NCBI GenBank assembly: GCA_016937995.1
Contig: JAFGVM010000071.1
Location: 1-40,302 of the forward strand
Direction: 5' to 3'
DNA: 40,302 nucleotides
From: Candidatus Delongbacteria bacterium
GTDB lineage: Bacteria; UBA4055
The position numbers and the translations under genes were made by a program. The first letter of the stretch is position 1. Every line of letters begins with the position of its first letter. The notes beneath the pieces are model-generated. The model worked only from the letters and a program-made list of their open reading frames with translations, ran no database searches and was not told where the DNA came from. Positions 12 to 40,302 of the stretch are shown here, one piece after another.

Positions 12-37
12 AAAAAAAGGGAGTGAACACTCCCTTT
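12..37 (-). terminator. Rho-independent terminator of the DUF6754 operon
   Basis: Minus strand AAAGGGAGTG-TT-CACTCCC-TTTTTTT, about 20 nt after the stop of 58..810. Confidence 0.85.
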
Positions 38-57
38 AAAAAATATCAGATCATAAT

Positions 58-810
58 TTATAAAACACCCTCATCATTGAATTCGCGTTCCTTGTGGAAG
101 AATTTGAAATAAACTATCAGGAATACTACAATAACAGCCGATGATACTATAGATTCGTACGGATGATCTACAAGTAGAATAGATCTATCAATGAACAATG
201 ATACTCTTCCCATAACAGTTGAACCGAATGCCGCACCAAAGAAGATCATCATTATCAAAATACCTACCCTTGCTGTTTTTCCAAGTAATCCTCTGTGAGG
301 CTTTGAGAAAAAGAAATACATCAAAGCTGAAAAAGTACCGAATACTAATACGATCCATTTTGAAGTCTCATAAAAAGTTCCCTGATTAACGTTCTCCATA
401 AGACTTGTACTCTGCATAAGTATGTTCTGTACCTGAATAGGTATCTGCATACCTGCCATATATCCGAAAATGAATCCGAAATAGTAATTTGCGACCCAGG
501 CTTTTTTTCTACTGAATCTGAAAAGCATTGTAGAAGCAAGAAGTAACCAGAAAATGATCGTAAGATCAGATAAATGGAACTCTACGAACATATCTGTTAA
601 CGGCATAATGAAAAAAGGTTTTACACTTATATGCCACAGTAATGTCCAGAAATATCCTAACGATATACCAATAAAGATATTTTCACCAATTTTAAATAAT
701 GGATTGTCTCTATACAAAAATGACATTATCATAAGAGTAGCTATAACAGGCACCCAGTTCGTAAAAAAATCATTTAAAAAGATTGCATCCAAAAATGTAT
801 TCAAGTCCAT
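58..810 (-). CDS. Polytopic membrane protein (about 7 TM), 4th gene of DUF6754 operon
   Basis: 250 aa, alternating hydrophobic helices and basic loops (RDNPLFK, RFSRKK, KPHRGLLGKTAR); GGAGG RBS; ATG overlaps the upstream TAA. Confidence 0.85.
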   Translation of the reverse strand: MDLNTFLDAIFLNDFFTNWVPVIATLMIMSFLYRDNPLFKIGENIFIGISLGYFWTLLWHISVKPFFIMPLTDMFVEFHLSDLTIIFWLLLASTMLFRFSRKKAWVANYYFGFIFGYMAGMQIPIQVQNILMQSTSLMENVNQGTFYETSKWIVLVFGTFSALMYFFFSKPHRGLLGKTARVGILIMMIFFGAAFGSTVMGRVSLFIDRSILLVDHPYESIVSSAVIVVFLIVYFKFFHKEREFNDEGVL

Positions 811-1649
811 TACTTACCTCCTTTCTTACGTTCTATGAAATAAACAATATTACCTATCAGAACGAGTCCGAATATGACCAAATGTGAAAATGTTAAGGAC
901 GACAATCCTTTTGTTGCACTTCCGTAATAGTCAACTTTATATTTTTCTGAAACTAACTTCTCATATTCAGCTGCACCTCTAAGTCCGTTACTTAATCCAA
1001 CAAGCTGTCCTGTTTGATAGTAAGGAATAAAGTCAGGACCAAGCACCGCTGTAACAGCAAGAGCAAATTTGTAATGAAACCTGATCTGCATATCAATGAA
1101 AGCCTGATGCCAGCCCGAACCGGTAAGACCCAGCATAAAATCAATATCCTCCAAAGTTTCAACTCCTTCAAATATCTTTCCTTCTTTCTTGAATGTCCCT
1201 TTATAATCTGAGACCATACTGAATATCTGAATATTAGGCATAATAGGGATATAGTCCATATGTATGTAATCTACTCCTTCCTCCAAATTCCTGAATTCTT
1301 CCATGTTCATTATTTTTTTAACTGTCTCTTTTCCAAGTCCCATTCCGTTAACTGACGCACCATAATAAATAAATACTTTTAGTTTCTTGATCAAACAATG
1401 CTTATAAAAAGCTTCAAAAAATGGTAAAAGTTCAGCTTTTTGTGTTGGTGTGAATGCAAAATCTATATGTACGGCATCTCCTTCTTTCAAGGCTTCTATC
1501 TCATCAAAGATGGCTTTTGTTTCTTTCGAAGCTGAGACCGGGAATTTAAGAAAATCAAATCCTGGAATCAGAGGAATAATGATCGACAGAAACACCAAAA
1601 GATATATAATCCTTCTGTCGAGATTTTTAAGTTTTTCTAATATGTTCAT
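810..1649 (-). CDS. Two-TM membrane protein with alpha/beta soluble domain, 3rd gene of DUF6754 operon
   Basis: 279 aa; N-terminal TM after DRR, C-terminal TM before RKKGGK; motif PYYQTGQLVGLSNGLRGAAEYE. Confidence 0.85.
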   Translation of the reverse strand: MNILEKLKNLDRRIIYLLVFLSIIIPLIPGFDFLKFPVSASKETKAIFDEIEALKEGDAVHIDFAFTPTQKAELLPFFEAFYKHCLIKKLKVFIYYGASVNGMGLGKETVKKIMNMEEFRNLEEGVDYIHMDYIPIMPNIQIFSMVSDYKGTFKKEGKIFEGVETLEDIDFMLGLTGSGWHQAFIDMQIRFHYKFALAVTAVLGPDFIPYYQTGQLVGLSNGLRGAAEYEKLVSEKYKVDYYGSATKGLSSLTFSHLVIFGLVLIGNIVYFIERKKGGK

Positions 1650-1677
1650 ATTTCAACCTTTATTATTTTCTTTTATT

Positions 1678-2292
1678 TTATTCAGACAAGTGTGATCTTT
1701 CAAGACCAAAGAATATTCTTATCATCATAGTTATCATACCAAGATAACCTCCAAAGATGATCGCTCTTCTTCCTGCACTTGAAGGAGCATCCATGATCCA
1801 TTCACCTATCACAGGTATCTTATCCCACATTGCTTCACCCAGAGTAATCTTACTTAGCATCACGAACACAGAAGCAATAAGCAACACTGCTGATTCAAGA
1901 GATTTAGCTTTAAATGATCTGTAAGCTGCTGATGCTATGTAAAAAGCAAGTAATGCAAATACTGTTGCCTGGAAAGGAATGTATACATTGAAGAACATTG
2001 AACTGAAAGGTGTTCCGGCCGCTGTTCCTCTTTGAACACCAAGGAATATCATAAGAATTATCATTGATACTCTCAGAATAGAGTAGTACCTTTCATTGTT
2101 GTACTTTATTTTATAGTAATTCTGTCTTACAACAGAATATGCAGCGATCATTATTCCTACTACACCACCGATTTTCAATCCGTTGGAAAAAAATATCTTA
2201 AGATTATCAAAGAACATCCCTGCAAAGAAGAACTCCAGATACCATAAGCTGGCAGCAATAAGTCCTAATAAAATTGGTATTTCTTTTTTCAT
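1678..2292 (-). CDS. Polytopic membrane protein (about 6 TM), 2nd gene of DUF6754 operon
   Basis: Start moved to ATG 2292 (MKKEIP) with AAGGA upstream, which removes the overlap with 2313..4178; 204 aa; motifs FALLAFYIASAAYRSF and GRRAIIFGGYLG. Confidence 0.85.
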   Translation of the reverse strand: MKKEIPILLGLIAASLWYLEFFFAGMFFDNLKIFFSNGLKIGGVVGIMIAAYSVVRQNYYKIKYNNERYYSILRVSMIILMIFLGVQRGTAAGTPFSSMFFNVYIPFQATVFALLAFYIASAAYRSFKAKSLESAVLLIASVFVMLSKITLGEAMWDKIPVIGEWIMDAPSSAGRRAIIFGGYLGMITMMIRIFFGLERSHLSE

Positions 2293-2312
2293 TTTATCAT
2301 TATCCTTTTTTA

Positions 2313-4178
2313 TTAATGTGTTGACAACAAGTCTCTTATAAACGTCCATTCTGGATTTAAAGTCAGTAATATAGTACTGATAACGAACAAACTACCAAAT
2401 ATCAGCTTTCCGTAATCAGAAAGTTTCAGATTTGATAAAATTTGGGCATCTCTTGAAAGATAAGCTGCAGCTGCATAAAGTTCCTCACCTATCAAAGTGT
2501 AATCACATGCAGTAATGAAGAATGGCAGCTGAGCAGCTGAAACAGTACCTGCGACCTGTATAGCTCCTGCTGCAAAACCAGCTTCTGATATCAGTAATGA
2601 CTCAGCGGCATAATAACCAAAGTGAAGTGCTGTAGCCGGTTTCTTTCTGGCAATTATACCTGATAGACCTGCTGCAAAAGCAAACTGGTCCTGTACAAGA
2701 AAAAAACAGTTATCTTTTTTATGATCTTCAGGATAACCTGCATCTAAAAAACCTGATGCTATCATTTCTTCTGCTATCTGAAGAACGATAGGGTCATAGG
2801 CAGGATAAATTATCTCAGCTTTAAATTCAGCGACTTTTTTTGCAACACTTCTCAGAATAAGCATACTTGCAATAGTCTGAGGCTCAGTGAATCCACCTAA
2901 TCCCGAGTCATATATAATGGGTTTACCCATTTCTGTTGCTCTTCCTACTGCTTCATCGATCGCATCCAGGCCGGGGATCCTTCTTATAAAGATCGAATCT
3001 TTCTTTTTTCTAACGGTGAGAAAAACATAAAAGAAAAGAATGAAGAACATAAATGTGAAAATCAAGACGTTAGTTCTGTATGTTCTAAAACCAGAATCGA
3101 CGTCAAATCTAAAATATTTTTTTGATGCAGAACCCAGGTCCTGGGCAAATTTAATTTTAAGTATATTTTTAAAGTATGTTTCAAATTCCGGATCATCATC
3201 AATTAATTTCTTAACCAGTTCATTGCCTACATCGTAAGTACCGTTAAAACTTCTGTACTGGTTAACTACTCCAAGTATTCTTGTAACCTCGGTAGAGTAA
3301 ACATTGTCTATCGTAACTGCTTTCGCATCGAGCCATTTTTCATGAAGTTCTTTTGATTTTAACTCATCATCTTCTTCTTCAGCTTTCTTTTTTGCCTGAT
3401 ATGTGGTCTCAATGTTAGTTGCGATCTCTTCGAGATACTTCTCTTTATTACCTCTAACATAATCTCCAAGTTTCTTTGAGAAAAGTTCAAGTTTTTCCTG
3501 TAAGTCATCATCAATGTAAAGGAAGTAGACCCTTTTATCTGTTACACGTGTAACTTCTGCGTAAATATTGTCAAGCATTTCATCGTAACCAATGGTATAT
3601 CTCATAAGAACCTTGTATGAGCTTTGTAATTTATCACCATAGTCCTTTATACCATTGTTATCAGCTGCTTCAAGTCTGATAAGATCGTCAATTGCAGTAA
3701 GTTGATCCTGCATTGGTTTAGAAAGATGACCTACAAGTGCCGGATTCTCAATTTCTCCGGCCAATTCTTTGTCTATCCATGATAAATTATTTTCGAGTAG
3801 ATTTCTCAGTGTTTCAGAAACACCGTTATCTTTCAATTCCAGAATTGCTACTCTGATCTTCTCAAGTTCTACTGCAGTAATTTTGTTAGGATCTTCTCCT
3901 GATTTGAAAAAATCTTCCATAAATCCTATAATCCGGGGAAGAAGAATATCATAATCTCGGGTTACATCCCATTCATCGCTGATCTTTGTAAATTCTTCGG
4001 CAACTTCTTTACAAAGCTTTTCTTCATCGCTAAGCTCTTTTACAGGCTCAGCAAAAACAGTTGAATCTGTTTCAGTTACTGATAAAGAATCCTGTTTACT
4101 TTCAGGTGCGGTGTCGATTTGTGCATACATATACAAGACGAGCATCAAAAGTATCAGGATTGATAAAGTCCTTTTCAT
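2313..4178 (-). CDS. DUF6754 domain protein with signal peptide and large helical extracytoplasmic region
   Basis: 621 aa; MKRTLSILILLMLVLYMYA signal peptide; TM near aa 370-390; motifs IRRIPGLDAIDEAVGRATEMGKP and LPFFITACDYTLIGEELYAAAAYL recognised as DUF6754. Confidence 0.8.
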   Translation of the reverse strand: MKRTLSILILLMLVLYMYAQIDTAPESKQDSLSVTETDSTVFAEPVKELSDEEKLCKEVAEEFTKISDEWDVTRDYDILLPRIIGFMEDFFKSGEDPNKITAVELEKIRVAILELKDNGVSETLRNLLENNLSWIDKELAGEIENPALVGHLSKPMQDQLTAIDDLIRLEAADNNGIKDYGDKLQSSYKVLMRYTIGYDEMLDNIYAEVTRVTDKRVYFLYIDDDLQEKLELFSKKLGDYVRGNKEKYLEEIATNIETTYQAKKKAEEEDDELKSKELHEKWLDAKAVTIDNVYSTEVTRILGVVNQYRSFNGTYDVGNELVKKLIDDDPEFETYFKNILKIKFAQDLGSASKKYFRFDVDSGFRTYRTNVLIFTFMFFILFFYVFLTVRKKKDSIFIRRIPGLDAIDEAVGRATEMGKPIIYDSGLGGFTEPQTIASMLILRSVAKKVAEFKAEIIYPAYDPIVLQIAEEMIASGFLDAGYPEDHKKDNCFFLVQDQFAFAAGLSGIIARKKPATALHFGYYAAESLLISEAGFAAGAIQVAGTVSAAQLPFFITACDYTLIGEELYAAAAYLSRDAQILSNLKLSDYGKLIFGSLFVISTILLTLNPEWTFIRDLLSTH

Positions 4179-4227: not shown

Positions 4228-4256
4228 ATATTAAGTAAATAAAAAAAAAATGTCAA
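4228..4256 (-). promoter_or_regulatory. Sigma70-type promoter of the DUF6754 operon
   Basis: Minus strand TTGACA (4256-4251), 17 nt spacer containing T10, TAATAT (4233-4228). Confidence 0.7.
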
Positions 4257-17890: not shown

Positions 17891-19552
17891 TTATTTAATT
17901 AAGACCATTTTATTTGCCTGAACTATTCCATCGTCCGTTCTAAGCACACCGTAGTAAATTCCACTTGATAATTTATCTCCGTTAAATTCAAATGAGAACT
18001 TTCCGGCTGTGAATTTATTGTCAACAACTTTCTCGACCAGTTTTCCTGCCTGATCATATATATTTATGCTTATATTTTGATGTTTATCATTGATGAAAGA
18101 AATTGTTGTTGTCGGATTGAACGGATTCGGATAATTTTGTTCTAATTGTAAATTGTCCATTGTAAATTGTTCATTGTCTATCCCTGTATTTTTAACAAGC
18201 TGGACATTTACTTCAGTTGCTTCTTTAAAAACCCCTGTATCATCAGTAACTACGATATTATCTATTGTCTGAGGAAAGTACCCCGGACAGGAAACGGTCA
18301 TTGTATATGTTCCCGGTATCAGTATTCTGTAATAATCCCCTTTATCAGGATCTGTGTAATAATCTTTGTCAATACCTGCTATCTGGATAGTTGCTGCAAC
18401 AGGTACACCTGACACAGAATCAGTGACTACCCCGTAGATACCTTTATGAGCAGCTGATAAGTACCAGAACATTGAATTTCTATTCTCTTGCCAATAAACC
18501 GGCATTGAGCTGTAAGAAGGCCATTTTGTACCGGATATTTCCAGTGTCATGTCCATATCATTATGATATCTGTAGTTCCAGTCCTGCATTCCGCCATCTA
18601 TTGAATACCAGTCACATCCATTGGTTACTCCATCCGTAAATGAAGAACTGCCGAACAATCTTGGATTCCTGCTTGCATAACCATAAGCCAGCCAGTAAGC
18701 ATGAGCATCATCAGGAGCTGCAGCATAGGCACCATTTGCTACACCAAAATCCTTATCAAATACAAAATTGGCAACTTCAGCTCCACCGTGAAAGTTTGTC
18801 GATAGAATAAAGTTGTGTGCTTTTGTCCAGCTGATCATTGCCTGGTTCTCAGGAATTGTGCTGACTAATATCGTATCAGGTTCATAATAAGTTCCTTCAG
18901 GGAAATTTCTGTTTAAATCAATATAGTTAGCATTATATCTCTGTCCAAGTTCATTTCCATCTGGATTCATTAATGGCATTATGTATAGCTCAGTGTTGTT
19001 TACTATAAACTGCATTGTATCATTATCTGCGTAATATCCTTGAAGAATATCCTCGATCATATACATTTCCATTTCCATTCCGGTAACTTCATCACCGTGC
19101 ATTGTCGAAACGAACTTTACTTCTGGTTCTGCTTCTTCTATGTCAAGGCTGTCTGTGATCTTAAGTACCCATAATTCTCTTCCCTGTACAGTCGTTCCTA
19201 TCTGTATTCTTTGACATATCTCAGGATATCTATTCTGCCAAGCAAGCATTGAATCTCCAATAGACTGGTTGTCGTAGAATTGAGTTGCATCTTTAGGGAT
19301 TTGCAATGGTGTCCAGCTAACAGTGTAACCTGCTTCAGTCAACATGGAAAATTCTTCTTCTGTTACATATACCTTAATAGATTCAGGTAATCCTTTTGCA
19401 GTGAAACTTGTTCGGTCTATATCAATTTTGTTGTCCTGAAGAAATTTTATATCATCAAGACCTGATATCTTTACTACTGCATATTCGTGAAGTTTTACGA
19501 AAGCTGAAAGCATTGTTAGAGATATTAGTATTATTAGTATCGTTCTCTTCAT
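17891..19552 (-). CDS. Secreted M14 zinc carboxypeptidase (N/E-like) with carboxypeptidase regulatory-like domain and T9SS/FlgD-type C-terminal domain
   Basis: Signal peptide; MHGDE, NPDG, RYNAN..DLNRNF, NFHGG, GGMQDWNY, TLEIS; C-terminal QNYPNPFNP...KMVLIK. Confidence 0.92.
   Translation of the reverse strand: MKRTILIILISLTMLSAFVKLHEYAVVKISGLDDIKFLQDNKIDIDRTSFTAKGLPESIKVYVTEEEFSMLTEAGYTVSWTPLQIPKDATQFYDNQSIGDSMLAWQNRYPEICQRIQIGTTVQGRELWVLKITDSLDIEEAEPEVKFVSTMHGDEVTGMEMEMYMIEDILQGYYADNDTMQFIVNNTELYIMPLMNPDGNELGQRYNANYIDLNRNFPEGTYYEPDTILVSTIPENQAMISWTKAHNFILSTNFHGGAEVANFVFDKDFGVANGAYAAAPDDAHAYWLAYGYASRNPRLFGSSSFTDGVTNGCDWYSIDGGMQDWNYRYHNDMDMTLEISGTKWPSYSSMPVYWQENRNSMFWYLSAAHKGIYGVVTDSVSGVPVAATIQIAGIDKDYYTDPDKGDYYRILIPGTYTMTVSCPGYFPQTIDNIVVTDDTGVFKEATEVNVQLVKNTGIDNEQFTMDNLQLEQNYPNPFNPTTTISFINDKHQNISINIYDQAGKLVEKVVDNKFTAGKFSFEFNGDKLSSGIYYGVLRTDDGIVQANKMVLIK
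18144..18178 (-). repeat. Heptamer repeat nACAAT(G/T) x5 inside the M14 linker
   Basis: Sense strand GACAATG AACAATT TACAATG GACAATT TACAATT, encoding DNEQFTMDNLQL. Confidence 0.8.
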
Positions 19553-20432: not shown

Positions 20433-21746
20433 TTATAATTTCAATGCTTCTTTAAATGCTTTAAAAACAAATTCAGGAGATGAATTGTGCAGAAGAAGGA
20501 TCAGATCACCACCATAAGCATCAATGATATGCTTATATTTTTTAATTTCATCGATGATCTCGGTCTTATTCATTTTAATGTGAGAATTAAGTGTTGCATC
20601 CATTACGATCAAGGGATGCTCAATAATATCGTAAGGTTTTCTTTCTTTAAAATTCCATGGTCTGAACGGATAACTGGTACCACATCTGAAACCTGCATAC
20701 CTTGAATAACCGAGAGAATACTCATTCTTAAAACCAGCTTTCTGAAGAAGATCAAATGAAATTTCCACATCGAATCTGAGGAAGTGTGCTCTGACAGAAT
20801 CTACTTTGATATTCAGTTTCTTTTCAAGAAGTTCTTTCTCAGATAAAATATTATCAAGTGATGACATGGAATCATAACCGTAATGCAGGCCGATCTCTCC
20901 CCCGTTTTCCAGAATTAATTCAGCTGTTTTAGAAAAATCTTGATCAGCGAACCAACCTGAGTCATAGATACTCTTTTCAGCTACCGGAATGAAGAACACA
21001 GGTTTTTCTGTAGTGAATTCAGATATTTGTATCAATTCTTCAAAAGTATTGTAGGGATCCTTTGAATTAATGAGGATCTTCATACAGAAGTCTCTGAAGT
21101 TCTGATAGAACATTTTCAGAGAATGTCTCTTTAAAATATCACCTACCAGTTTTTTAAAAATATTAAAATTTGAAAATTTCCTATAATCGTCAATATCTGA
21201 AGTCAGAGTAATCTTATTTTCATGGTCTTTCATTTCAACGTCTGGATCAAGTTCGATGATAAATGACCGGAGCAGAATAGCATATTCATTCACTATCGGT
21301 CTACCTATGAAATTTTCCTTCACAGCCAAACTTATTTTACCGGGAAATCTTCCGTGTTCATCTTTTTCAGGAACAGCAATTTCCTCCCAGCGGGTTATCA
21401 TAAAGAACACTGATGAAATAATATCAATTCCACAATGGATATGATCTTCTGATATGCTTATTCTTTCATCCCCGAACATAATCGGTAATTCTGCGATCTC
21501 TGCACAGTTCAGCATCTTTAATTTTACCGGGATATTTTCAGGTTTAATGTAATCAATTTCAACACGGGCAAAAAAATCATCAGATAAAGTAAGTATCTTG
21601 CCATTGGGAAATTCAAATATATAGTTATTGTATTCTCCGGTAAGGATTAGATACTCAATGCCGAGTATTTCCTTTAAAACAAAATTAATCACATAACTCT
21701 TCTCGGGTACAAATTTATCAGATATTTTAACGATCAGAGGTTTCAT
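20433..21746 (-). CDS. Polysaccharide deacetylase-like protein (DUF7033-type N-terminus)
   Basis: DIISSVFFMITRWEE, DEHGRF, RPIVNEY, TSDID, EIGLH, RAHFLRF, GFRCGT, PLIVMD. Confidence 0.8.
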   Translation of the reverse strand: MKPLIVKISDKFVPEKSYVINFVLKEILGIEYLILTGEYNNYIFEFPNGKILTLSDDFFARVEIDYIKPENIPVKLKMLNCAEIAELPIMFGDERISISEDHIHCGIDIISSVFFMITRWEEIAVPEKDEHGRFPGKISLAVKENFIGRPIVNEYAILLRSFIIELDPDVEMKDHENKITLTSDIDDYRKFSNFNIFKKLVGDILKRHSLKMFYQNFRDFCMKILINSKDPYNTFEELIQISEFTTEKPVFFIPVAEKSIYDSGWFADQDFSKTAELILENGGEIGLHYGYDSMSSLDNILSEKELLEKKLNIKVDSVRAHFLRFDVEISFDLLQKAGFKNEYSLGYSRYAGFRCGTSYPFRPWNFKERKPYDIIEHPLIVMDATLNSHIKMNKTEIIDEIKKYKHIIDAYGGDLILLLHNSSPEFVFKAFKEALKL

Positions 21747-33367: not shown

Positions 33368-33405
33368 AACTTTTTAAGGTGAAAAGTTTAACGAATGGAG
33401 GTAAT

Positions 33406-36102
33406 GTGAAAAAAGTAATCTCGATGTTAATTCTTATTTTAGGAATGAGCCTTCTTGCTCAGACTTCGACGCCACCGTCTGCAGGTGACGGTTCCAGCGG
33501 AAATCCTTATCAGATAGGAACACTTGAAAATCTTTACTGGATAGCTTCAAATTCCGGTGAATGGAACAAATATTATATCCAGACAGCTGATATTGATGCG
33601 TCATCGACATCTACCTGGAACAGCGGAACCGGATGGACCCCGATCGGTAACATGACAACTAAGTTTACCGGTAACTACAACGGTAACAAACACACTATCA
33701 GCGGATTATATATTAACAGACCGTCTAATGAAGATCTTGGTTTTTTTGGAGTTGTACAGGGAGGTACGATCAATTATTTAGGAATAAAAAATATCACCAT
33801 TTCAGGATACCGTTACATTGGTGCACTAGCTGGTAGGATCGTAAGCAGTAGTCCTGTAAATTACTGTTTTACAACGGGAGTTGTCACAGCCTCTTATGAT
33901 TATTCCTATACCGGAGGATTATTCGGTTATTCTTATGAAACTGATACATTCAACTGTTATACCAGAACAAATGTTAACGGAAGACAAAACCTTGGTGGTT
34001 TTATTGGACTTTCTTCATTTTCAGATATAACAAACTGCTATTCTACCGGTCTGGTGACCAGCTACCATCCTAATTATGAAGGTGGTTTTATAGGTGGATG
34101 GACAGGAAATGATCTGTATCCGGGTTTGACTGCAAATTTCTGGGATATTCAGTCTTCAGGTACTTCAATTGGTATTATCGGAAGAGATTTTCCGGGAGTA
34201 ACTGGTAAAACTACTTTGGAAATGCAAACTGATACGACTTTCACAAACGCAGGATGGAATTTTTCTACTGTTTGGGGAATCGACGGCTCCTATAACGGTG
34301 GATATCCCTTCCTTCTCTGGGAAAGAATGTCTCTACCTATACTAACAACTCAGGATGTAAGCGATATTTCTACAACTACAGCAACCGGAAACGGAACAAT
34401 AGTTGACCCCGGATTCCCTTATCCTACCCAGCATGGTTTCTGCTGGAACACTTCCGGTTTACCTTCTCTATCTGATTCAAAAACTGAGGAAGGTATTATC
34501 GACTCAACAGGGACTTTCTCTTCTCAGCTGCTTATGCTGGACAACTATACCACTTACTATGTAAGAGCATATGCTACAAATGATCTAGGTACATCATACA
34601 GTGATGAAGTTATATTCACAACATTAGCCATTCTACCTGCTACTCCTTCCGGTTCTGGAACAGATATAGATCCTTATCTTATATCAAACATGGAAGAATT
34701 GTACTGGATAGCAGAAGATTACCATAATTGGGATAAATTCTATCTACAAACTGCAGATATTGATGCTTCAATAACTGCTTCAATTAACAATGGAGAAGGG
34801 TGGTTATCTATCGGAGATCAGTATGAAAGTTTTACAGGTTCATACGACGGACAGAATTACTCAATTTCAAATTTATTTATTGACCACCTTTACGGATATT
34901 ATACCGGTCTTTTCGGACAGGCACAATACGCATCAATATCAAATGTGAACTTGATCGATGCTGAAATTACATCCGGTGACTACACAGGAACTCTGATAGG
35001 TTATAGCAACAGTTCTGTCGTAGATAACTGTTCTGCTTCCGGCTATGTGAACGGTCAGGGGATGATAGGTGGTCTGATTGGTGCTACTTCAGGTAACAGT
35101 TCTCCACTAATAACAAACTGTTCTTACACAGGAACAGTTTCGGGAGAAAGCAATATTGGGGGGCTTATCGGCCAAATACAAAACTATGCAATCATTCAAA
35201 ATTGCTTTACTGATGCTGTTGTTACAGCTACATCCAATTATTGCGGAGGTTTAATTGGTGAAGTATACAGTTATTCAACAGTTGAGAATTGTTATTCTTC
35301 CGGTTCGGTTCACGGAATGTATACTTTCGGTGGTTTTATAGGCATGTTAAACAATGAATGTACGGTATTAAACTGTTACAGTGAATCTGATGTTTATGGT
35401 GATCAAATAGATTATTACTACTACTATGAATACAGTGAGCAAGTTGGAGGTTTTATCGGTCATAACTATGTTTCTGATATATATAATTCATATTCAACAG
35501 GTTCTGTATACGGACTATATGATGTAGGTGGCTTCATTGGAACTAACAATGGAACCACAGATGTTATTAACTGTTTTAGCTCCGGTAGTGTTACAAGTGA
35601 CGATAATCCCGGTGGTTTCATAGGATATTTAAACAACGGTAGTAGCGCTGTTATTACTAATTGTTTCTGGGATATTGAAACTTCCGGTCAGACCACTTCG
35701 CAAGGTGGATCAGGTGTTGTAGGAAAAACTACTGCTGAGATGACAACTCAAGCAACATTTACTGATGCTACTTGGGATTTTGTAATTGAAACAACAAATG
35801 GTACTGATGACTATTGGAATATTAATGCTGGAGTTAATTCCGGATATCCATTCTTAAGCTGGCAGGATGTTGTTTTACCGCTAGGTATTCCTCAAAATCT
35901 TGTCATCACCCGATCTACCGATCCTGAACTTACCTGGGATGCAGTTTCAGGTGCAACTTCTTATACTGTCTACTATTCTGAGGATCCATATGCTACCTTC
36001 CCTACATCATGGACTGAAGTGACAGGAATCACTGGAACAAGTTGGACAGACACTGATGCAACAGAATCTAAGAAATTCTATATTGTAGTTGCAGTGAATT
36101 AA
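33406..36102 (+). CDS. Secreted GLUG-motif beta-helix surface protein: two GLUG modules, an FN3-like spacer and a C-terminal FN3-like domain
   Basis: GTG start after GGAGG; signal peptide; duplicated G.G...PY.I....LYWIA...Y.QTADIDAS...GW..IG; many GG(L/F)IG..NCYS.G.V repeats; TTYYVRAYATN. Confidence 0.85.
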   Translation: MKKVISMLILILGMSLLAQTSTPPSAGDGSSGNPYQIGTLENLYWIASNSGEWNKYYIQTADIDASSTSTWNSGTGWTPIGNMTTKFTGNYNGNKHTISGLYINRPSNEDLGFFGVVQGGTINYLGIKNITISGYRYIGALAGRIVSSSPVNYCFTTGVVTASYDYSYTGGLFGYSYETDTFNCYTRTNVNGRQNLGGFIGLSSFSDITNCYSTGLVTSYHPNYEGGFIGGWTGNDLYPGLTANFWDIQSSGTSIGIIGRDFPGVTGKTTLEMQTDTTFTNAGWNFSTVWGIDGSYNGGYPFLLWERMSLPILTTQDVSDISTTTATGNGTIVDPGFPYPTQHGFCWNTSGLPSLSDSKTEEGIIDSTGTFSSQLLMLDNYTTYYVRAYATNDLGTSYSDEVIFTTLAILPATPSGSGTDIDPYLISNMEELYWIAEDYHNWDKFYLQTADIDASITASINNGEGWLSIGDQYESFTGSYDGQNYSISNLFIDHLYGYYTGLFGQAQYASISNVNLIDAEITSGDYTGTLIGYSNSSVVDNCSASGYVNGQGMIGGLIGATSGNSSPLITNCSYTGTVSGESNIGGLIGQIQNYAIIQNCFTDAVVTATSNYCGGLIGEVYSYSTVENCYSSGSVHGMYTFGGFIGMLNNECTVLNCYSESDVYGDQIDYYYYYEYSEQVGGFIGHNYVSDIYNSYSTGSVYGLYDVGGFIGTNNGTTDVINCFSSGSVTSDDNPGGFIGYLNNGSSAVITNCFWDIETSGQTTSQGGSGVVGKTTAEMTTQATFTDATWDFVIETTNGTDDYWNINAGVNSGYPFLSWQDVVLPLGIPQNLVITRSTDPELTWDAVSGATSYTVYYSEDPYATFPTSWTEVTGITGTSWTDTDATESKKFYIVVAVN

Positions 36103-36264: not shown

Positions 36265-39200
36265 ATGCGCTATTTGATATCAGTTTTTTTAACTATCTTC
36301 TTTATTTTACTGCAAGCTCAAGGCGTTCCTGAGGAAGAAGTTCTCACCGATTATTACCAAAGCGTAAAATCTATCAATACTAATCCTCAGATAAAAGTAC
36401 AACTCGGTCATTCTGAGCCAATAAATTCAGCAGTTTTCAGTCCTGATGGTAAATATATTGCTTCGGGTGGAAATGATAATTGCGTTAAATTATGGGATGT
36501 AAAGACCAGCAAAGAGATTTATACATTAAAAAATCATTCAAAAAAAGTTACTTCTGTTAAATTCTCTCCTGATGGTAAATACATTGCTTCAGGATCTGAA
36601 GACAAGACAATTGTTTTAGTTGACGTAATTACTCAAAAAGTGATCAGGCGATTCAAGGATCATGACTCAAGGATCCTTTCAATTGATTTTTCTCCGGATG
36701 GTACTCAGATCATTTCAGGATTTAGTGATGGCACTCTGATATTATTCAATGTACAAAATGGGAATACTATAAAAAAATACTTCACTCAGGACACAGATAT
36801 CAATGCAGTCGCTTTTTCTCCTGACGGAGATTCATTCGCTTCACTTTCTAAAGAAAATCTTAAAATATGGGAAAAGAATACCGATATAGCGATCAGAACT
36901 CTTTCTTCTGAAGTAAGCGGAAGAGGACTTGCATATTCACCCGACGGAAAATTTTTAGCTTCAAATGTAAAAGGCAACAAGATCAAGATATGGAAAGTAT
37001 CTTCCGGTAAAGAAATTAATACTTATGAAGATAACACATCTTTTATCAATACAATTTCATATTCCCCAAACGGCAAATATCTTGCATCAGGGTCTTCGAT
37101 TTTCGATAACTCTGTTAAGGTATGGAACCTAGAAACCGGATATTCTGCAAGTACCTACAGATTTTATGAAAGCGGAGTTACATCAGTTGCATTTTCGAAA
37201 GACAGCAAATTTTTATTGTCTGCTTCAGAGGATAAGACCATAGTATACTTTAATACCGATGATATAAGTAAAAGAATGACAATAAAAGGCCAATCAAGAT
37301 CGATCGAATGTCTGGCAATATCTGTTGACAATAAATATGTTATCGCAGGATCTAATGATAATACTTCAAAGATCTGGGATATTGGTCATGGAAAAGAAAT
37401 ATATGTTCTAAAAGGGCACTTATTGCCTGTGAAATGTGCTGATTTTTCTTCTGATGGAAAATATGCTGCAACTGGTTCCTGGGATAATACTATAAGAATA
37501 TACAATATGGCTAACGGAGAACATTTAAAAACACTCAAAGATCATACCGAATGTGTAACATCTATCTGCTTTTCACCTGATGGACAACTTCTTGTATCTG
37601 GTTCTAATGATAAAAAAGTAAAGATTTGGGATATTTCTACCGGAGAAGTAAAGTTCACATTCGATGAAGACTATTATGATATAAATATGGTAACATTTTC
37701 TTCTGACGGGCAATATATAGCTTTTTGTGGTGATGACAGAACTGTAAATGTCATGGATGTATACTCAGGGAGTAGAATTATTACGTATAAAGGACATAAC
37801 AATTCAGTTCATTCGGTCTCATTTACACCTGATAAAAGCAAAATTGTATCAGCAACATGGGGTGAATTAAATATCTGGGATAGTAATAGTGGAGAAACGA
37901 TCAAAACTTTAGACGGAAACTATAAGATCACTTTGTCACCGGATGGGAAATATGCTTTGTTAGGCAATAAAACCACACCTGATCTTGACCTTTTAGATTT
38001 GATCAACGATTCTAAAATAGTAACTTTGAAAAATTGTTCAATTGAAGCTAATTCCATGGCGATCTCATCAGATGGTAAATATGTAGTTTTGGGATCATTG
38101 GATGGGACACTAAACTACTGGGATGTAAAAAGCGGACAACTCATTTATTCAAGTATAATAACTGCCGATGGAGAGTATTTAAGCTGGACTCCGGAAGGTT
38201 TTTTCGCAGGGAATGAAGAACTGGCCAGAGAAACTGTTTACATCGTAAATAACATGAATATAATTGATATTGATCAGTTCTATGAACTATTCTACCGTCC
38301 TGATCTTCTTCAGGCAAAGATCGAAGGAAAAGATATTTCAAAATACAAAGTTAATATTGCAGATCTGTTGAACAACAACGGACTTCCACCTGAAGTGCAA
38401 TTTATAACTGAAGCAGGATATAGTGATAAAAGGGAAATTCAGTTAAGAATGAAAGTGAAAGACATGGGTGGCGGGATTGGAAATGTAACTTTATTTATAG
38501 ATGGAATGCCTGTTGCGATAAACCAGAAAGGACGGGGAATCAAGATCGTACAAAAGAAAAATGGAAATGAGGATTATAATTACGAAGCATTGATTACTCT
38601 TAGGTACGGAAAAAACAACATCGAACTTTCTGCATACAACAAAAGCAACAGTATTGAATCAAGAAAGTCTAAAATTGAAATTGTTTATGAATCGGAAAAG
38701 GTAAACAAGCCTGATCTGCATGTTTTCATGGTTGCAGTTGATAAATATCGAGATAAAGCCCTTTGGTTGAACTATTCTAAAAATGATGCTGATGCGGTAG
38801 GAAAAGCTTTCAGTGATAAATCAAAAAAGATATTTAACAAAATATCATTGTATAAACTGTATGATAATGAAGTAACCAAAGATCTGCTTTCTGCAAAATT
38901 TACAGAGATCGGGAAAAATATCAAACCTGACGATGTATTTATTTTCTACCTAGCAGGTCATGGTGTTACTAATGACAGTGATGGGGATTATTACTATCTT
39001 CCGTCTGATTTTAGATATACAGGCAGTGAAGCAATTGTTTCAGGTGGTATATCAAAGCAGATCATCATGGAAAATCTGTTAAAGATCAAAGCTCAGAAAT
39101 TGATCCTGCTATTTGACACTTGTAACTCAGGATCATTTATTGATAAACCTGCCAGCAGAGGTATATCAGAAAAAACTGCAATTGACAGATTGAAGAAAAC

Positions 39201-39465
39201 AATCGGAAGAGCTATCATCGTTGCCAGTTCTGAAAGCCAGGTAGCATTGGAAGGATTTGAAGACCATGGAGTTTTTACGTATGCATTAATTCAAGGTTTG
39301 CTTGGAAAAGCTGATTTTAACAAAAATGATCAGATAACTGTTGGTGAAATCACAATGTATGTAGAAAATGAAGTTCCTGAACTTACATATAAAAAATGGG
39401 GTTACGAGCAAATTCCTCAGAAAGTATTACCAAAACAGGACTTCCCTATCGGATTGGTAAAGTAA
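36265..39465 (+). CDS. WD40-repeat protein with C-terminal caspase-like (peptidase C14) domain
   Basis: Signal peptide; about 14 GH...FSPDG...SG..D..(V/I)K.WD repeats; catalytic dyad FYLAGHG and LFDTCNSG; HGVFTYAL, QIP. Confidence 0.92.
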   Translation: MRYLISVFLTIFFILLQAQGVPEEEVLTDYYQSVKSINTNPQIKVQLGHSEPINSAVFSPDGKYIASGGNDNCVKLWDVKTSKEIYTLKNHSKKVTSVKFSPDGKYIASGSEDKTIVLVDVITQKVIRRFKDHDSRILSIDFSPDGTQIISGFSDGTLILFNVQNGNTIKKYFTQDTDINAVAFSPDGDSFASLSKENLKIWEKNTDIAIRTLSSEVSGRGLAYSPDGKFLASNVKGNKIKIWKVSSGKEINTYEDNTSFINTISYSPNGKYLASGSSIFDNSVKVWNLETGYSASTYRFYESGVTSVAFSKDSKFLLSASEDKTIVYFNTDDISKRMTIKGQSRSIECLAISVDNKYVIAGSNDNTSKIWDIGHGKEIYVLKGHLLPVKCADFSSDGKYAATGSWDNTIRIYNMANGEHLKTLKDHTECVTSICFSPDGQLLVSGSNDKKVKIWDISTGEVKFTFDEDYYDINMVTFSSDGQYIAFCGDDRTVNVMDVYSGSRIITYKGHNNSVHSVSFTPDKSKIVSATWGELNIWDSNSGETIKTLDGNYKITLSPDGKYALLGNKTTPDLDLLDLINDSKIVTLKNCSIEANSMAISSDGKYVVLGSLDGTLNYWDVKSGQLIYSSIITADGEYLSWTPEGFFAGNEELARETVYIVNNMNIIDIDQFYELFYRPDLLQAKIEGKDISKYKVNIADLLNNNGLPPEVQFITEAGYSDKREIQLRMKVKDMGGGIGNVTLFIDGMPVAINQKGRGIKIVQKKNGNEDYNYEALITLRYGKNNIELSAYNKSNSIESRKSKIEIVYESEKVNKPDLHVFMVAVDKYRDKALWLNYSKNDADAVGKAFSDKSKKIFNKISLYKLYDNEVTKDLLSAKFTEIGKNIKPDDVFIFYLAGHGVTNDSDGDYYYLPSDFRYTGSEAIVSGGISKQIIMENLLKIKAQKLILLFDTCNSGSFIDKPASRGISEKTAIDRLKKTIGRAIIVASSESQVALEGFEDHGVFTYALIQGLLGKADFNKNDQITVGEITMYVENEVPELTYKKWGYEQIPQKVLPKQDFPIGLVK

Positions 39466-39519: not shown

Positions 39520-40302
39520 CTACCAAGAGACCATGATGCCCCTTGACTGCAGCTCTGGGATATATATATCTATAGATAGTGAATCCAGCGGATTAAAAGT
39601 TAGTTCAAGGTTTCCCAATCCTGCAAAATCCAAGTTTTGAACAAGCGGATAAATATCACTGACATTATTGTTCTCAAGATAAATGTTCCTGATTTTGGAT
39701 AAATTCCTGAATGCAGTTATATCAGTTACATTATTATTCCGGAGATTTACGTCGTTAAGTTCGCTAATATTACTCATTACAGTTATATCGTCAACCTGAT
39801 TGTCGTTCAGATCTAAATTGGTGATATTTGATAATAAATTCAAAGAAGTTATATCGCTTATATCGTTATTATCAAGCCTTAGAATTTTTATTCCGGTTAA
39901 ATTTTCAAGCGGAGTAATATCGGTGATCTGGTTTTGTGAAAAAATAATACCGGTTAAACCGGTTAAATTACTCAATGCGGTTATTTCTTCGATCTGATTG
40001 AAAGAAAAATCGACGTAATTAAGTGCGGTTAAATTTCGTAATGCTGAAATATCACTTATATTATTATATCCAATATCCAACAATTCTAATTCCGACAGTT
40101 CTTCCAGAGGAGATATATCTGAGATCAAATTTTTATCAAGGTGAAGAATTTTTAAATTTTTAAGATCACTGAGCTGAGTAAGATCGCTGATCTTATTTTC
40201 AAATAGATCAAGAGATTCAAGTGACCTGAAGTATTCCATACCTGAAAGATCAATGATATTCAAAATATAAGCTTCGAATTCAATAATATTCCCTATATCT
40301 GA
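39520..40302 (-). CDS. Internalin-like leucine-rich repeat protein, 5' end outside the window
   Basis: 22-aa LxxLxLxxNxIxDIxxLxxL repeats; frame stays open from TTG 40263 to the window edge (SDIGNIIEFEAYILN...). Confidence 0.88.
   Translation of the reverse strand, partial: SDIGNIIEFEAYILNIIDLSGMEYFRSLESLDLFENKISDLTQLSDLKNLKILHLDKNLISDISPLEELSELELLDIGYNNISDISALRNLTALNYVDFSFNQIEEITALSNLTGLTGIIFSQNQITDITPLENLTGIKILRLDNNDISDITSLNLLSNITNLDLNDNQVDDITVMSNISELNDVNLRNNNVTDITAFRNLSKIRNIYLENNNVSDIYPLVQNLDFAGLGNLELTFNPLDSLSIDIYIPELQSRGIMVSW

Follow-up and report, generated by a model that had tools for sequence, protein, structure and literature searches.

What does a compact operon of membrane proteins do when it is spread through whole bacterial phyla and its products have no described function? 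The question is raised by positions 58 to 4,178 of contig JAFGVM010000071.1 from a Candidatus Delongbacteria bacterium (assembly GCA_016937995.1). The stretch analysed, called the window here, is 40,302 nucleotides long. The four genes of the operon, named A to D in their order along the reverse strand, all encode membrane proteins, and the product of A carries a DUF6754 domain. A sequence-only reading of the locus had proposed a four-subunit, ATP-independent transporter, channel or signalling module. The analysis presented here adds to this four-gene cassette two cytoplasmic proteins, E and F, which track it phyletically and are often encoded directly upstream. A to F very probably constitute one six-protein system, E-F-A-B-C-D, with A-D as its membrane module.

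A four-gene cassette conserved across phyla

The genes and signals of the locus are given below; A, C and D are as in the list of open reading frames (ORFs).

2313..4178, reverse strand: gene A, 621 amino acids (aa)
2346..3089, reverse strand: DUF6754 (PF20539) match in A, residues 364-611 (Pfam, E 3.7e-91, 305.3 bits)
1678..2292, reverse strand: gene B, 204 aa from the ATG at 2292
810..1649, reverse strand: gene C, 279 aa
58..810, reverse strand: gene D, 250 aa
16..37, reverse strand: intrinsic-terminator-like hairpin (9 pairs, loop of 4) followed by a T-run, ~20 nt past the D stop
4228..4256, reverse strand: promoter-like TTGACA-17 nt-TAATAT upstream of A, with 10 of 12 consensus matches

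The DUF6754 match compares with a gathering score of 27 bits for PF20539. When the four window proteins were scanned, B, C and D matched zero Pfam families and A-D zero NCBIfam families. For B, the ORF list itself gave 2349..1678 (223 aa); the ATG at 2292 is the probable start because the length then equals that of the 204-aa paralogue in the same genome. A and B are separated by ~20 nt and B and C by 28 nt, and the start of D overlaps the stop of C by one base (TAATG); the description of the genes as co-oriented and tightly spaced is therefore borne out. The sequence-only reading had also given the operon its own promoter and terminator. The hairpin and T-run at 37..16 agree with the terminator, whereas the promoter is a plausible candidate only, as such sites occur at chance frequency in this AT-rich stretch (16 found, 16.2 expected from shuffles). 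The weight of the argument for a transcription unit thus lies on the terminator and on the packing of the genes.

A second, paralogous A-B-C-D copy is present in the same genome (L003, contig C40, 62..4172, reverse strand), encoding proteins of 609, 204, 280 and 252 aa. Its DUF6754 domain is ~71% identical to that of the window and its N-terminal domain is very different. For a wider view, one genome per species was scanned; the best 80 of the 628 stretches confirmed in this way supplied the 78 loci considered here. The labels among these 78 loci include WOR-3, Zixibacteria, Poribacteria, Ignavibacteria, Elusimicrobia, Cloacimonadota, Eisenbacteria, Latescibacterota, Stahlbacteria, Fermentibacteria, Edwardsbacteria, Planctomycetota, Nitrospirota and others. 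All their ORFs were searched with the window's B, C and D, and an A gene was taken as testable when at least 2300 nt lay downstream of it; 14 further A genes, too close to a locus end, are outside the 87 tested. B, C and D were found in that order, on the same strand, downstream of 86 of the 87 testable A genes, with median intergenic gaps of 10.5 nt (A-B), 1 nt (B-C) and 2 nt (C-D). The sole exception is an orphan A (L096, 5620..6789), where a six-frame search of the 3.4 kb downstream revealed no B, C or D; this orphan sits 2.8 kb past a complete cassette. Cassettes also occur as tandem arrays in 15 of the 78 loci, with two complete copies in 12 loci and three in 3. Conservation of the four genes as a unit, which had been put forward as a check on the operon, thus holds in this sample: A, B, C and D are co-inherited in a fixed order with coupled translation signals.

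DUF6754 is present in all 16 genomes sampled from the window's phylum, in all 151 sampled genomes of the phylum of genome G016 (contig labelled Ignavibacteria), mostly with 4-6 matches each, and in 13 of 14 genomes of a third, small phylum (12 above the cut-off). It was detected in 7 of the 61 genomes of the phylum of genome G019 and in 0 of 14 control genomes. In a search against proteins, the DUF6754 part matched at least 6876 protein clusters out of 8000 scored candidates. Full-text searches of the literature returned nothing mentioning DUF6754, PF20539 or PF13941 (the family of E), subscription journals being outside their coverage, and no relevant work joining GlmL, RnfC and membrane.

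Two cytoplasmic proteins, E and F, track the cassette

Pfam was run on the 111 genes immediately up- or downstream of the cassettes, and 208 flanking ORFs were clustered. The flanks are mostly lineage-specific (3-dehydroquinate synthase with a TIM-barrel protein in Poribacteria, PurF in WOR-3, a SurA-like peptidyl-prolyl isomerase in Elusimicrobia), with one recurring pair, E and F, located upstream on the same strand. E and/or F occupy this position in 12 of the 78 loci; among the 47 loci with 3300 nt or more of sequence ahead of the first cassette, they do so in 11.

E (~600-640 aa) matches PF13941 ("MutL", the GlmL family, of the ASKHA fold) over the whole model, with 397-427 bits and E values of 1e-118 to 1e-128. 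It also gives weak Hydantoinase_A matches and has an intact DxGSTTTK phosphate-binding motif. On the GlmL equivalog NF040745 it scores only 204-226 bits against a cut-off of 475, and on the NCBIfam ornithine-degradation protein 204 bits against a cut-off of 600. F (~375 aa), whose sequence starts with MAHAYTPGL, matches RnfC_N, NqrA_N, biotin-lipoyl and KOW models marginally; for RnfC_N, NqrA_N and TIGR01945 (rnfC) the E values span 3.9e-5 to 9e-3. Its best scores on the RnfC/NqrA N-terminal domain (PF13375/PF05896), 24.0 and 23.3 bits, are below the gathering cut-off of 25.6, and on TIGR01945 it reaches 20 bits against a cut-off of 246. Atlas clusters of F's own kind carry weak RnfC_N, Biotin_lipoyl and KOW labels, with PF13375 on 19% of one cluster, and contain no structural model. 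Between phyla, E is ~60% and F ~50% identical.

Across the 61 genomes of the phylum of G019, the distributions of A, F and E coincide: each is present in 7 genomes, the same ones for all three, and in 0 of the 54 others. In 6 of these 7, the genes for E, F and A directly adjoin each other in the same orientation. F was also detected in all 5 further DUF6754 genomes examined and, as a single orthologue per genome, in all 16 Delongbacteria genomes (two of the orthologues are cut by contig ends). These data show that E and F track the cassette. Delongbacteria also encode E-F fusion proteins of ~980-1040 aa, with the PF13941 part N-terminal and the F-like part C-terminal; the existence of such fusions supports the idea that E and F act together. 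In the genome of the window, the separate pair and a fusion paralogue were located as follows.

L111 (contig C29), 1805..7827, reverse strand: E-F pair, then a 249-aa signal-peptide protein and a 696-aa M29-like peptidase
L112 (contig C1), 1544..4489: E-F fusion paralogue, next to genes for a histidine kinase and a LuxR-type response regulator

The copy numbers suggest that one E-F pair serves several A-D cassettes. The exact co-occurrence of E and F with A in one phylum where they are patchily distributed, together with the frequent upstream position of the pair, weakens the earlier description of a "four-subunit" and "ATP-independent" unit and argues for a unit of six proteins that probably does depend on ATP. 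The flank survey bears on another early suggestion, that the many peptidases near the operon in the window make peptide uptake an option. It gave no support for such a link, as the flanking genes differ between lineages; with no conserved linkage, the idea was dropped.

Several further features of these loci were recorded. The 249-aa protein that follows the E-F pair has a weak YjbH-like match, and the gene order is repeated in the relative G013 (L150). Several matches to E-F fusions in relatives are flagged with one in-frame stop. In the Elusimicrobia-labelled loci L057 and L069, a 737-749-aa ORF without a Pfam match lies between F and A on the same strand, and L054, also labelled Elusimicrobia, has a 1670-aa ORF without a Pfam match on the opposite strand. 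In L042, L054 and L057, the gene for the SurA-like isomerase lies downstream in the opposite orientation.

The marginal matches of F to RnfC_N, NqrA_N and TIGR01945, all below the cut-offs, and the presence of RnfC_N on 19% of the members of an Atlas F cluster would be accounted for if the system were a divergent Rnf/Nqr-like ion-translocating complex, with B and D as RnfA/RnfE, C as RnfG and F as RnfC/NqrA; the subunit sizes and layout are superficially alike. The membrane subunits speak against this relationship. PF02508 is not among the 25 families most matched by 67 B or 70 D members at E values up to 1, and hhalign comparisons of B and D with 30 Rnf/Nqr D/E-type sequences of the same phylum gave probabilities of at most 0.8%. 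The subunits of PF02508 ligate an intramembrane iron-sulphur centre through conserved cysteines; B and D have no cysteine in invariant or near-invariant columns, and no flavin or iron-sulphur motifs were found. In addition, ordinary Rnf/Nqr genes coexist in the same genomes with the cassette, which has no RnfD/NqrB counterpart. Membership of B and D in the Rnf/Nqr family was thus rejected (no PF02508 signal, hhalign below 1%, no invariant cysteines), and the whole explanation is highly improbable.

Predicted topology of the membrane module

By hydropathy, B has six hydrophobic segments and D has six with an additional seventh, in agreement with the two proteins of 6-7 transmembrane (TM) helices described from the sequence. 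The seventh, C-terminal segment of the Delongbacteria D is absent from the family consensus and appears to be lineage-specific. A comprises a signal-peptide-like N-terminus, a lineage-specific N-terminal domain of ~340 aa, a first TM helix (TM1), the Rossmann-like DUF6754 domain and a second TM helix (TM2).

Orientations were predicted from counts of lysine plus arginine residues (K+R) in the family alignments. The DUF6754 domain is placed in the cytoplasm because K+R is 7.9 on its flanks and 2.9 on the outer flanks. Conversely, the domain of C is placed in the periplasm because K+R is 7.3 on the termini of the protein, both of which are positively charged, and 4.5 on the flanks of the domain. 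In B, alternate loops carry 10.3 K+R inside and 3.1 outside, which predicts six TM helices with both termini in the cytoplasm. This prediction agrees with two B homologues (L070, 6785..8563, and L039, 1255..2598) that carry large insertions in the TM3-TM4 loop: in one, four FG-GAP repeats (PF13517, E 5e-28); in the other, a homologue of C's soluble part. Both insertions fall exactly in the loop that the charge count puts outside. For D the totals are 5.8 and 5.9, and hence ambiguous; its charge density favours an outside N-terminus, with which a conserved basic C-terminal stretch does not fit.

The N-terminal part of A varies by lineage. Pfam detected fn3 in 5 of the 46 A proteins scanned, and one relative carries the NCBI name fn3; in other phyla the fn3-like domain is short and follows a signal-peptide-like segment. 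Taken together, the charge counts, the signal peptide and fn3 domain of A and the insertions in B give good support to a predicted topology in which the DUF6754 domain of A is cytoplasmic, and the N-terminal domain of A, the domain of C and loop 3 of B are periplasmic. It is equally well supported that these periplasmic parts vary between cassettes. Two proposals of the sequence-only reading, one soluble domain on each face of the membrane and a large extracytoplasmic domain in A, are in accord with these data, the latter as the lineage-variable N-terminal domain.

The DUF6754 domain is ~50% identical across phyla, with many invariant polar residues, compared with ~30-35% for B, C and D. Conserved polar residues in the family alignments include N370 in A, H256 and N267 in C, and N36 and E43 in D. 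Sequence searches of the PDB gave no match for A, B, C, E or F, and only marginal hydrophobic matches for D (E at least 0.16). Likewise, Pfam scans of 67 B and 70 D homologues returned only scattered weak hydrophobic matches, and an Atlas search with B retrieved only unnamed clusters of its own kind, with no structural model among them.

The DUF6754 domain and protein C share an architecture, on predicted opposite faces

AlphaFold2, run with the family alignments, gave models of the DUF6754 part of A (mean predicted local distance difference test, pLDDT, 85.3; predicted template modelling score, pTM, 0.77) and of C (pLDDT 92.7, pTM 0.89). Both models have the element order TM-H-(E-H)x6-TM (H, helix; E, strand), a six-stranded Rossmann-like sandwich between long hydrophobic helices, so that the TM-alpha/beta-TM build assigned to these two proteins beforehand is recovered. 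Foldseek comparisons of the two models with the PDB gave zero matches at E values of 0.001 or below. With either model, the highest Z of a full VIA scan was 10.1, among many unrelated Rossmann-like proteins. The neighbours from both programs were generic Rossmann-like ones, the VIA lists including Sir2, transhydrogenase domain III (dIII), KTN/RCK, GT-B halves, short-chain dehydrogenases/reductases and MT0777, and 12 PDB entries are common to the top-50 VIA lists of the A domain and C. The two domains therefore have a fold class and build in common, and nothing more specific.

In the DUF6754 domain, strand 1 is followed by a glycine-rich loop and invariant polar residues lie at the strands' C-terminal ends, where Rossmann-like domains usually bind their ligands. 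These features would suit a transmembrane sensor or regulator, in which a periplasmic ligand signal would reach a DUF6754 domain that binds a nucleotide-like ligand and, through it, control an enzymatic activity of E-F. The structural neighbours include regulatory domains (KTN/RCK, Sir2, transhydrogenase dIII, and domains of the molybdenum-cofactor-carrier/DprA type), and the presence of many paralogous cassettes with differing periplasmic parts beside a single E-F pair could be read in the same way. However, the fold matches are generic, a sensor would be unusual in having sixteen TM helices and, in the periplasm, a second Rossmann-like subunit, and family scans of A-F recognised no output domain (kinase, cyclase or helix-turn-helix). 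We consider a sensor improbable.

The shared architecture of the A domain and C, placed on opposite faces, also bears on the arrangement first proposed for the operon, a self-contained ATP-independent secondary transporter or channel of four subunits, in which two inverted-topology pairs (A domain/C and B/D) surround a pseudo-two-fold axis in the membrane plane. In its favour, B and D both have ~200-220 aa with six TM segments, and A-D are autonomous in most loci, with no E or F within 36 of the 47 loci that have enough upstream sequence. The known inverted-topology pairs, such as RnfA/RnfE and EmrE, are nevertheless clear sequence homologues, and no homology was detected within either pair here. 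The hhalign probability is at most 1.4% for the A domain and C, soluble parts alone included, at most 1.7% for B and D, and at best 5.1% for the halves of B and D. The "pairs" are consequently pairs in architecture only. Of the opposite orientations claimed for each of them, that of the A domain (in) and C (out) stands as a prediction, whereas that of B and D does not, B having its N-terminus inside and D being ambiguous. With, in addition, the exact co-occurrence of E and F with A in the 61 genomes of one phylum, often contiguously, a four-subunit transporter built of inverted pairs is quite unlikely.

A possible mechanism for the six-protein system

We infer that A-D assemble into one inner-membrane complex with ~16 TM helices. 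On the evidence of fold family and motif, E would hydrolyse ATP. Combining these elements, we tentatively favour a nucleotide-driven modular translocase, a reading we regard as possible rather than probable. In such a machine, the E-F pair would dock on the conserved cytoplasmic face of the module, formed by the DUF6754 domain and the conserved basic loops of B and D. A single pair would serve two to about five or more paralogous A-D cassettes per genome, which would differ chiefly on the periplasmic side. Nucleotide-dependent work of E-F would pass through the DUF6754 domain into the membrane module, which would then move a periplasmic substrate or cargo picked by the variable periplasmic domains. 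The nucleotide cycle of E would thus drive or gate the movement of cargo.

Several observations weigh against a nucleotide-driven translocase. ATP hydrolysis by E is predicted from its fold family and DxGSTTTK motif, and GlmL-family proteins are mutase accessory proteins with no known transport role. The 36 loci that show no E or F despite sufficient upstream sequence count here too, and in the genome of the window the E-F pair is unlinked from both cassettes, on another contig. The seven positive genomes of the phylum of G019 may be one clade, so that the co-occurrence may reflect few independent events. The Rossmann-like fold matches of the A domain and C, being generic (best Z 10.1, Foldseek E above 0.001), are silent on function, and the charge totals of D leave its orientation ambiguous.

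Binding to the cytoplasmic portions of membrane proteins that extend into the periplasm is common among ASKHA-fold proteins, as in PilM-PilN-PilO, FtsA-FtsN and MreB-RodZ. By analogy, E with F could dock under the membrane complex of a trans-envelope scaffold or assembly platform, positioning the periplasmic domains and organising an envelope structure or a step of its biogenesis. The universality of the system in several phyla is as expected for a housekeeping envelope role, and the periplasmic additions, fn3 and FG-GAP, are protein- or glycan-interaction modules. E, however, belongs to the GlmL/hydantoinase-like branch (PF13941), not to that of actin, FtsA and PilM; a scaffold would not need two polytopic six-TM subunits with conserved polar residues, and no recurring envelope-biogenesis genes were found among the flanks surveyed. 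A scaffold is therefore rather unlikely.

The nucleotide-driven translocase can be carried one step further. E-F-ABCD might represent a new class of primary membrane machine, powered by nucleotide hydrolysis in an ASKHA-fold protein and not by an ABC, P-type or rotary ATPase. This protein would power a modular inner-membrane translocase by way of an RnfC_N-like adaptor and a cytoplasmic Rossmann domain tethered to the membrane, and interchangeable periplasmic domains would set the specificity for cargo. We hold this extension to be somewhat doubtful; if true, it would concern a core function of whole phyla, including the Ignavibacteria-like lineages, Delongbacteria, Zixibacteria, WOR-3, Poribacteria, Elusimicrobia and others.

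What is new at this locus is the addition of E and F to a four-gene cassette, which yields a testable six-component system with a predicted topology. The system is widespread: all sampled genomes of two phyla and nearly all of a third carry it, usually in several copies. Three of its four membrane proteins (B, C and D) belong to no described family. A conserved system of six proteins in which an ASKHA-fold protein would be coupled to a complex with Rossmann-like domains on both membrane faces has no characterised counterpart. Working out its role would supply a missing piece of the core physiology of many lineages that are mostly uncultured, and could reveal a new mode of energising or controlling inner-membrane transport.

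Other genes of the window and of the paralogous locus

Beyond the cassette, the next genes of the window encode an NHL-type propeller, a methyltransferase and riboflavin enzymes. The remaining genes are housekeeping ones (riboflavin genes, Pss/Psd, LptF/G, several peptidases, urocanase and others), none of them tied to the operon. The following products were noted in their own right.

17891..19552, reverse strand: M14 carboxypeptidase with a type IX secretion C-terminal sorting domain
20433..21746, reverse strand: 437-aa DUF7033 protein, immediately upstream of two LptF/LptG permease genes
33379..36102, forward strand: 907-aa GLUG/M26_N-like protein
36265..39465, forward strand: 1066-aa protein of many WD40 repeats
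39520..40263, reverse strand: leucine-rich-repeat protein, adjoining the WD40-repeat protein

The organism appears to secrete peptidases through the type IX secretion system. The WD40-repeat and leucine-rich-repeat proteins are eukaryote-like repeat proteins, unusual in a bacterium. In the locus of the paralogous cassette (L003, 8473..9895, reverse strand), a 362-aa ORF adjoins a 114-aa ORF, with two small ORFs near. By eye, we take the former to have reverse-transcriptase-like motifs (YMDD) and the latter to resemble the four-helix bundles of the 23S rRNA intervening-sequence type; the group may be a retroelement.

Comparison with known systems

The system resembles no characterised machine, and its likenesses to known families are partial. 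The Pfam entry PF20539 covers only residues 364-611 of A and is a function-less domain definition; the cassette, the opposite-facing C and the E-F pair lie outside it. With the GlmL/MutL family (PF13941, TIGR01319), the resemblance is limited to E, which matches the whole model, yet is ~150 aa longer and far below the GlmL cut-off. The partners of E are F and a membrane cassette, not a B12 mutase.

Rnf and Na+-NQR are, like the complex proposed here, multi-subunit inner-membrane complexes with two six-TM subunits of ~200 aa and a TM-anchored periplasmic subunit. They also have a peripheral subunit with a barrel-sandwich domain of the RnfC_N/NqrA_N type, to which F's own match is marginal. In contrast, the present system has no cofactor motifs and no counterparts of RnfD/NqrB or RnfB/NqrF, and an ASKHA protein stands in place of the redox modules.

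In group II ECF transporters, in Mce systems with MceG and in sugar ABC importers with MsiK, one ATPase is shared by several membrane modules. The same genomic logic is seen here, with several paralogous cassettes that differ in their periplasmic parts and one cytoplasmic module that may be unlinked from them. The likeness is one of logic only, as the system includes no ABC ATPase and has no homology to ABC, ECF or Mce components. Finally, EmrE and other SMR proteins, Fluc and the RnfA/RnfE pair are built of similar subunits that face opposite ways, as is predicted here for the A domain and C. In those systems the opposite-facing parts are membrane-embedded repeats, whereas in the present one they would be soluble Rossmann-like domains, each carried on two TM helices.

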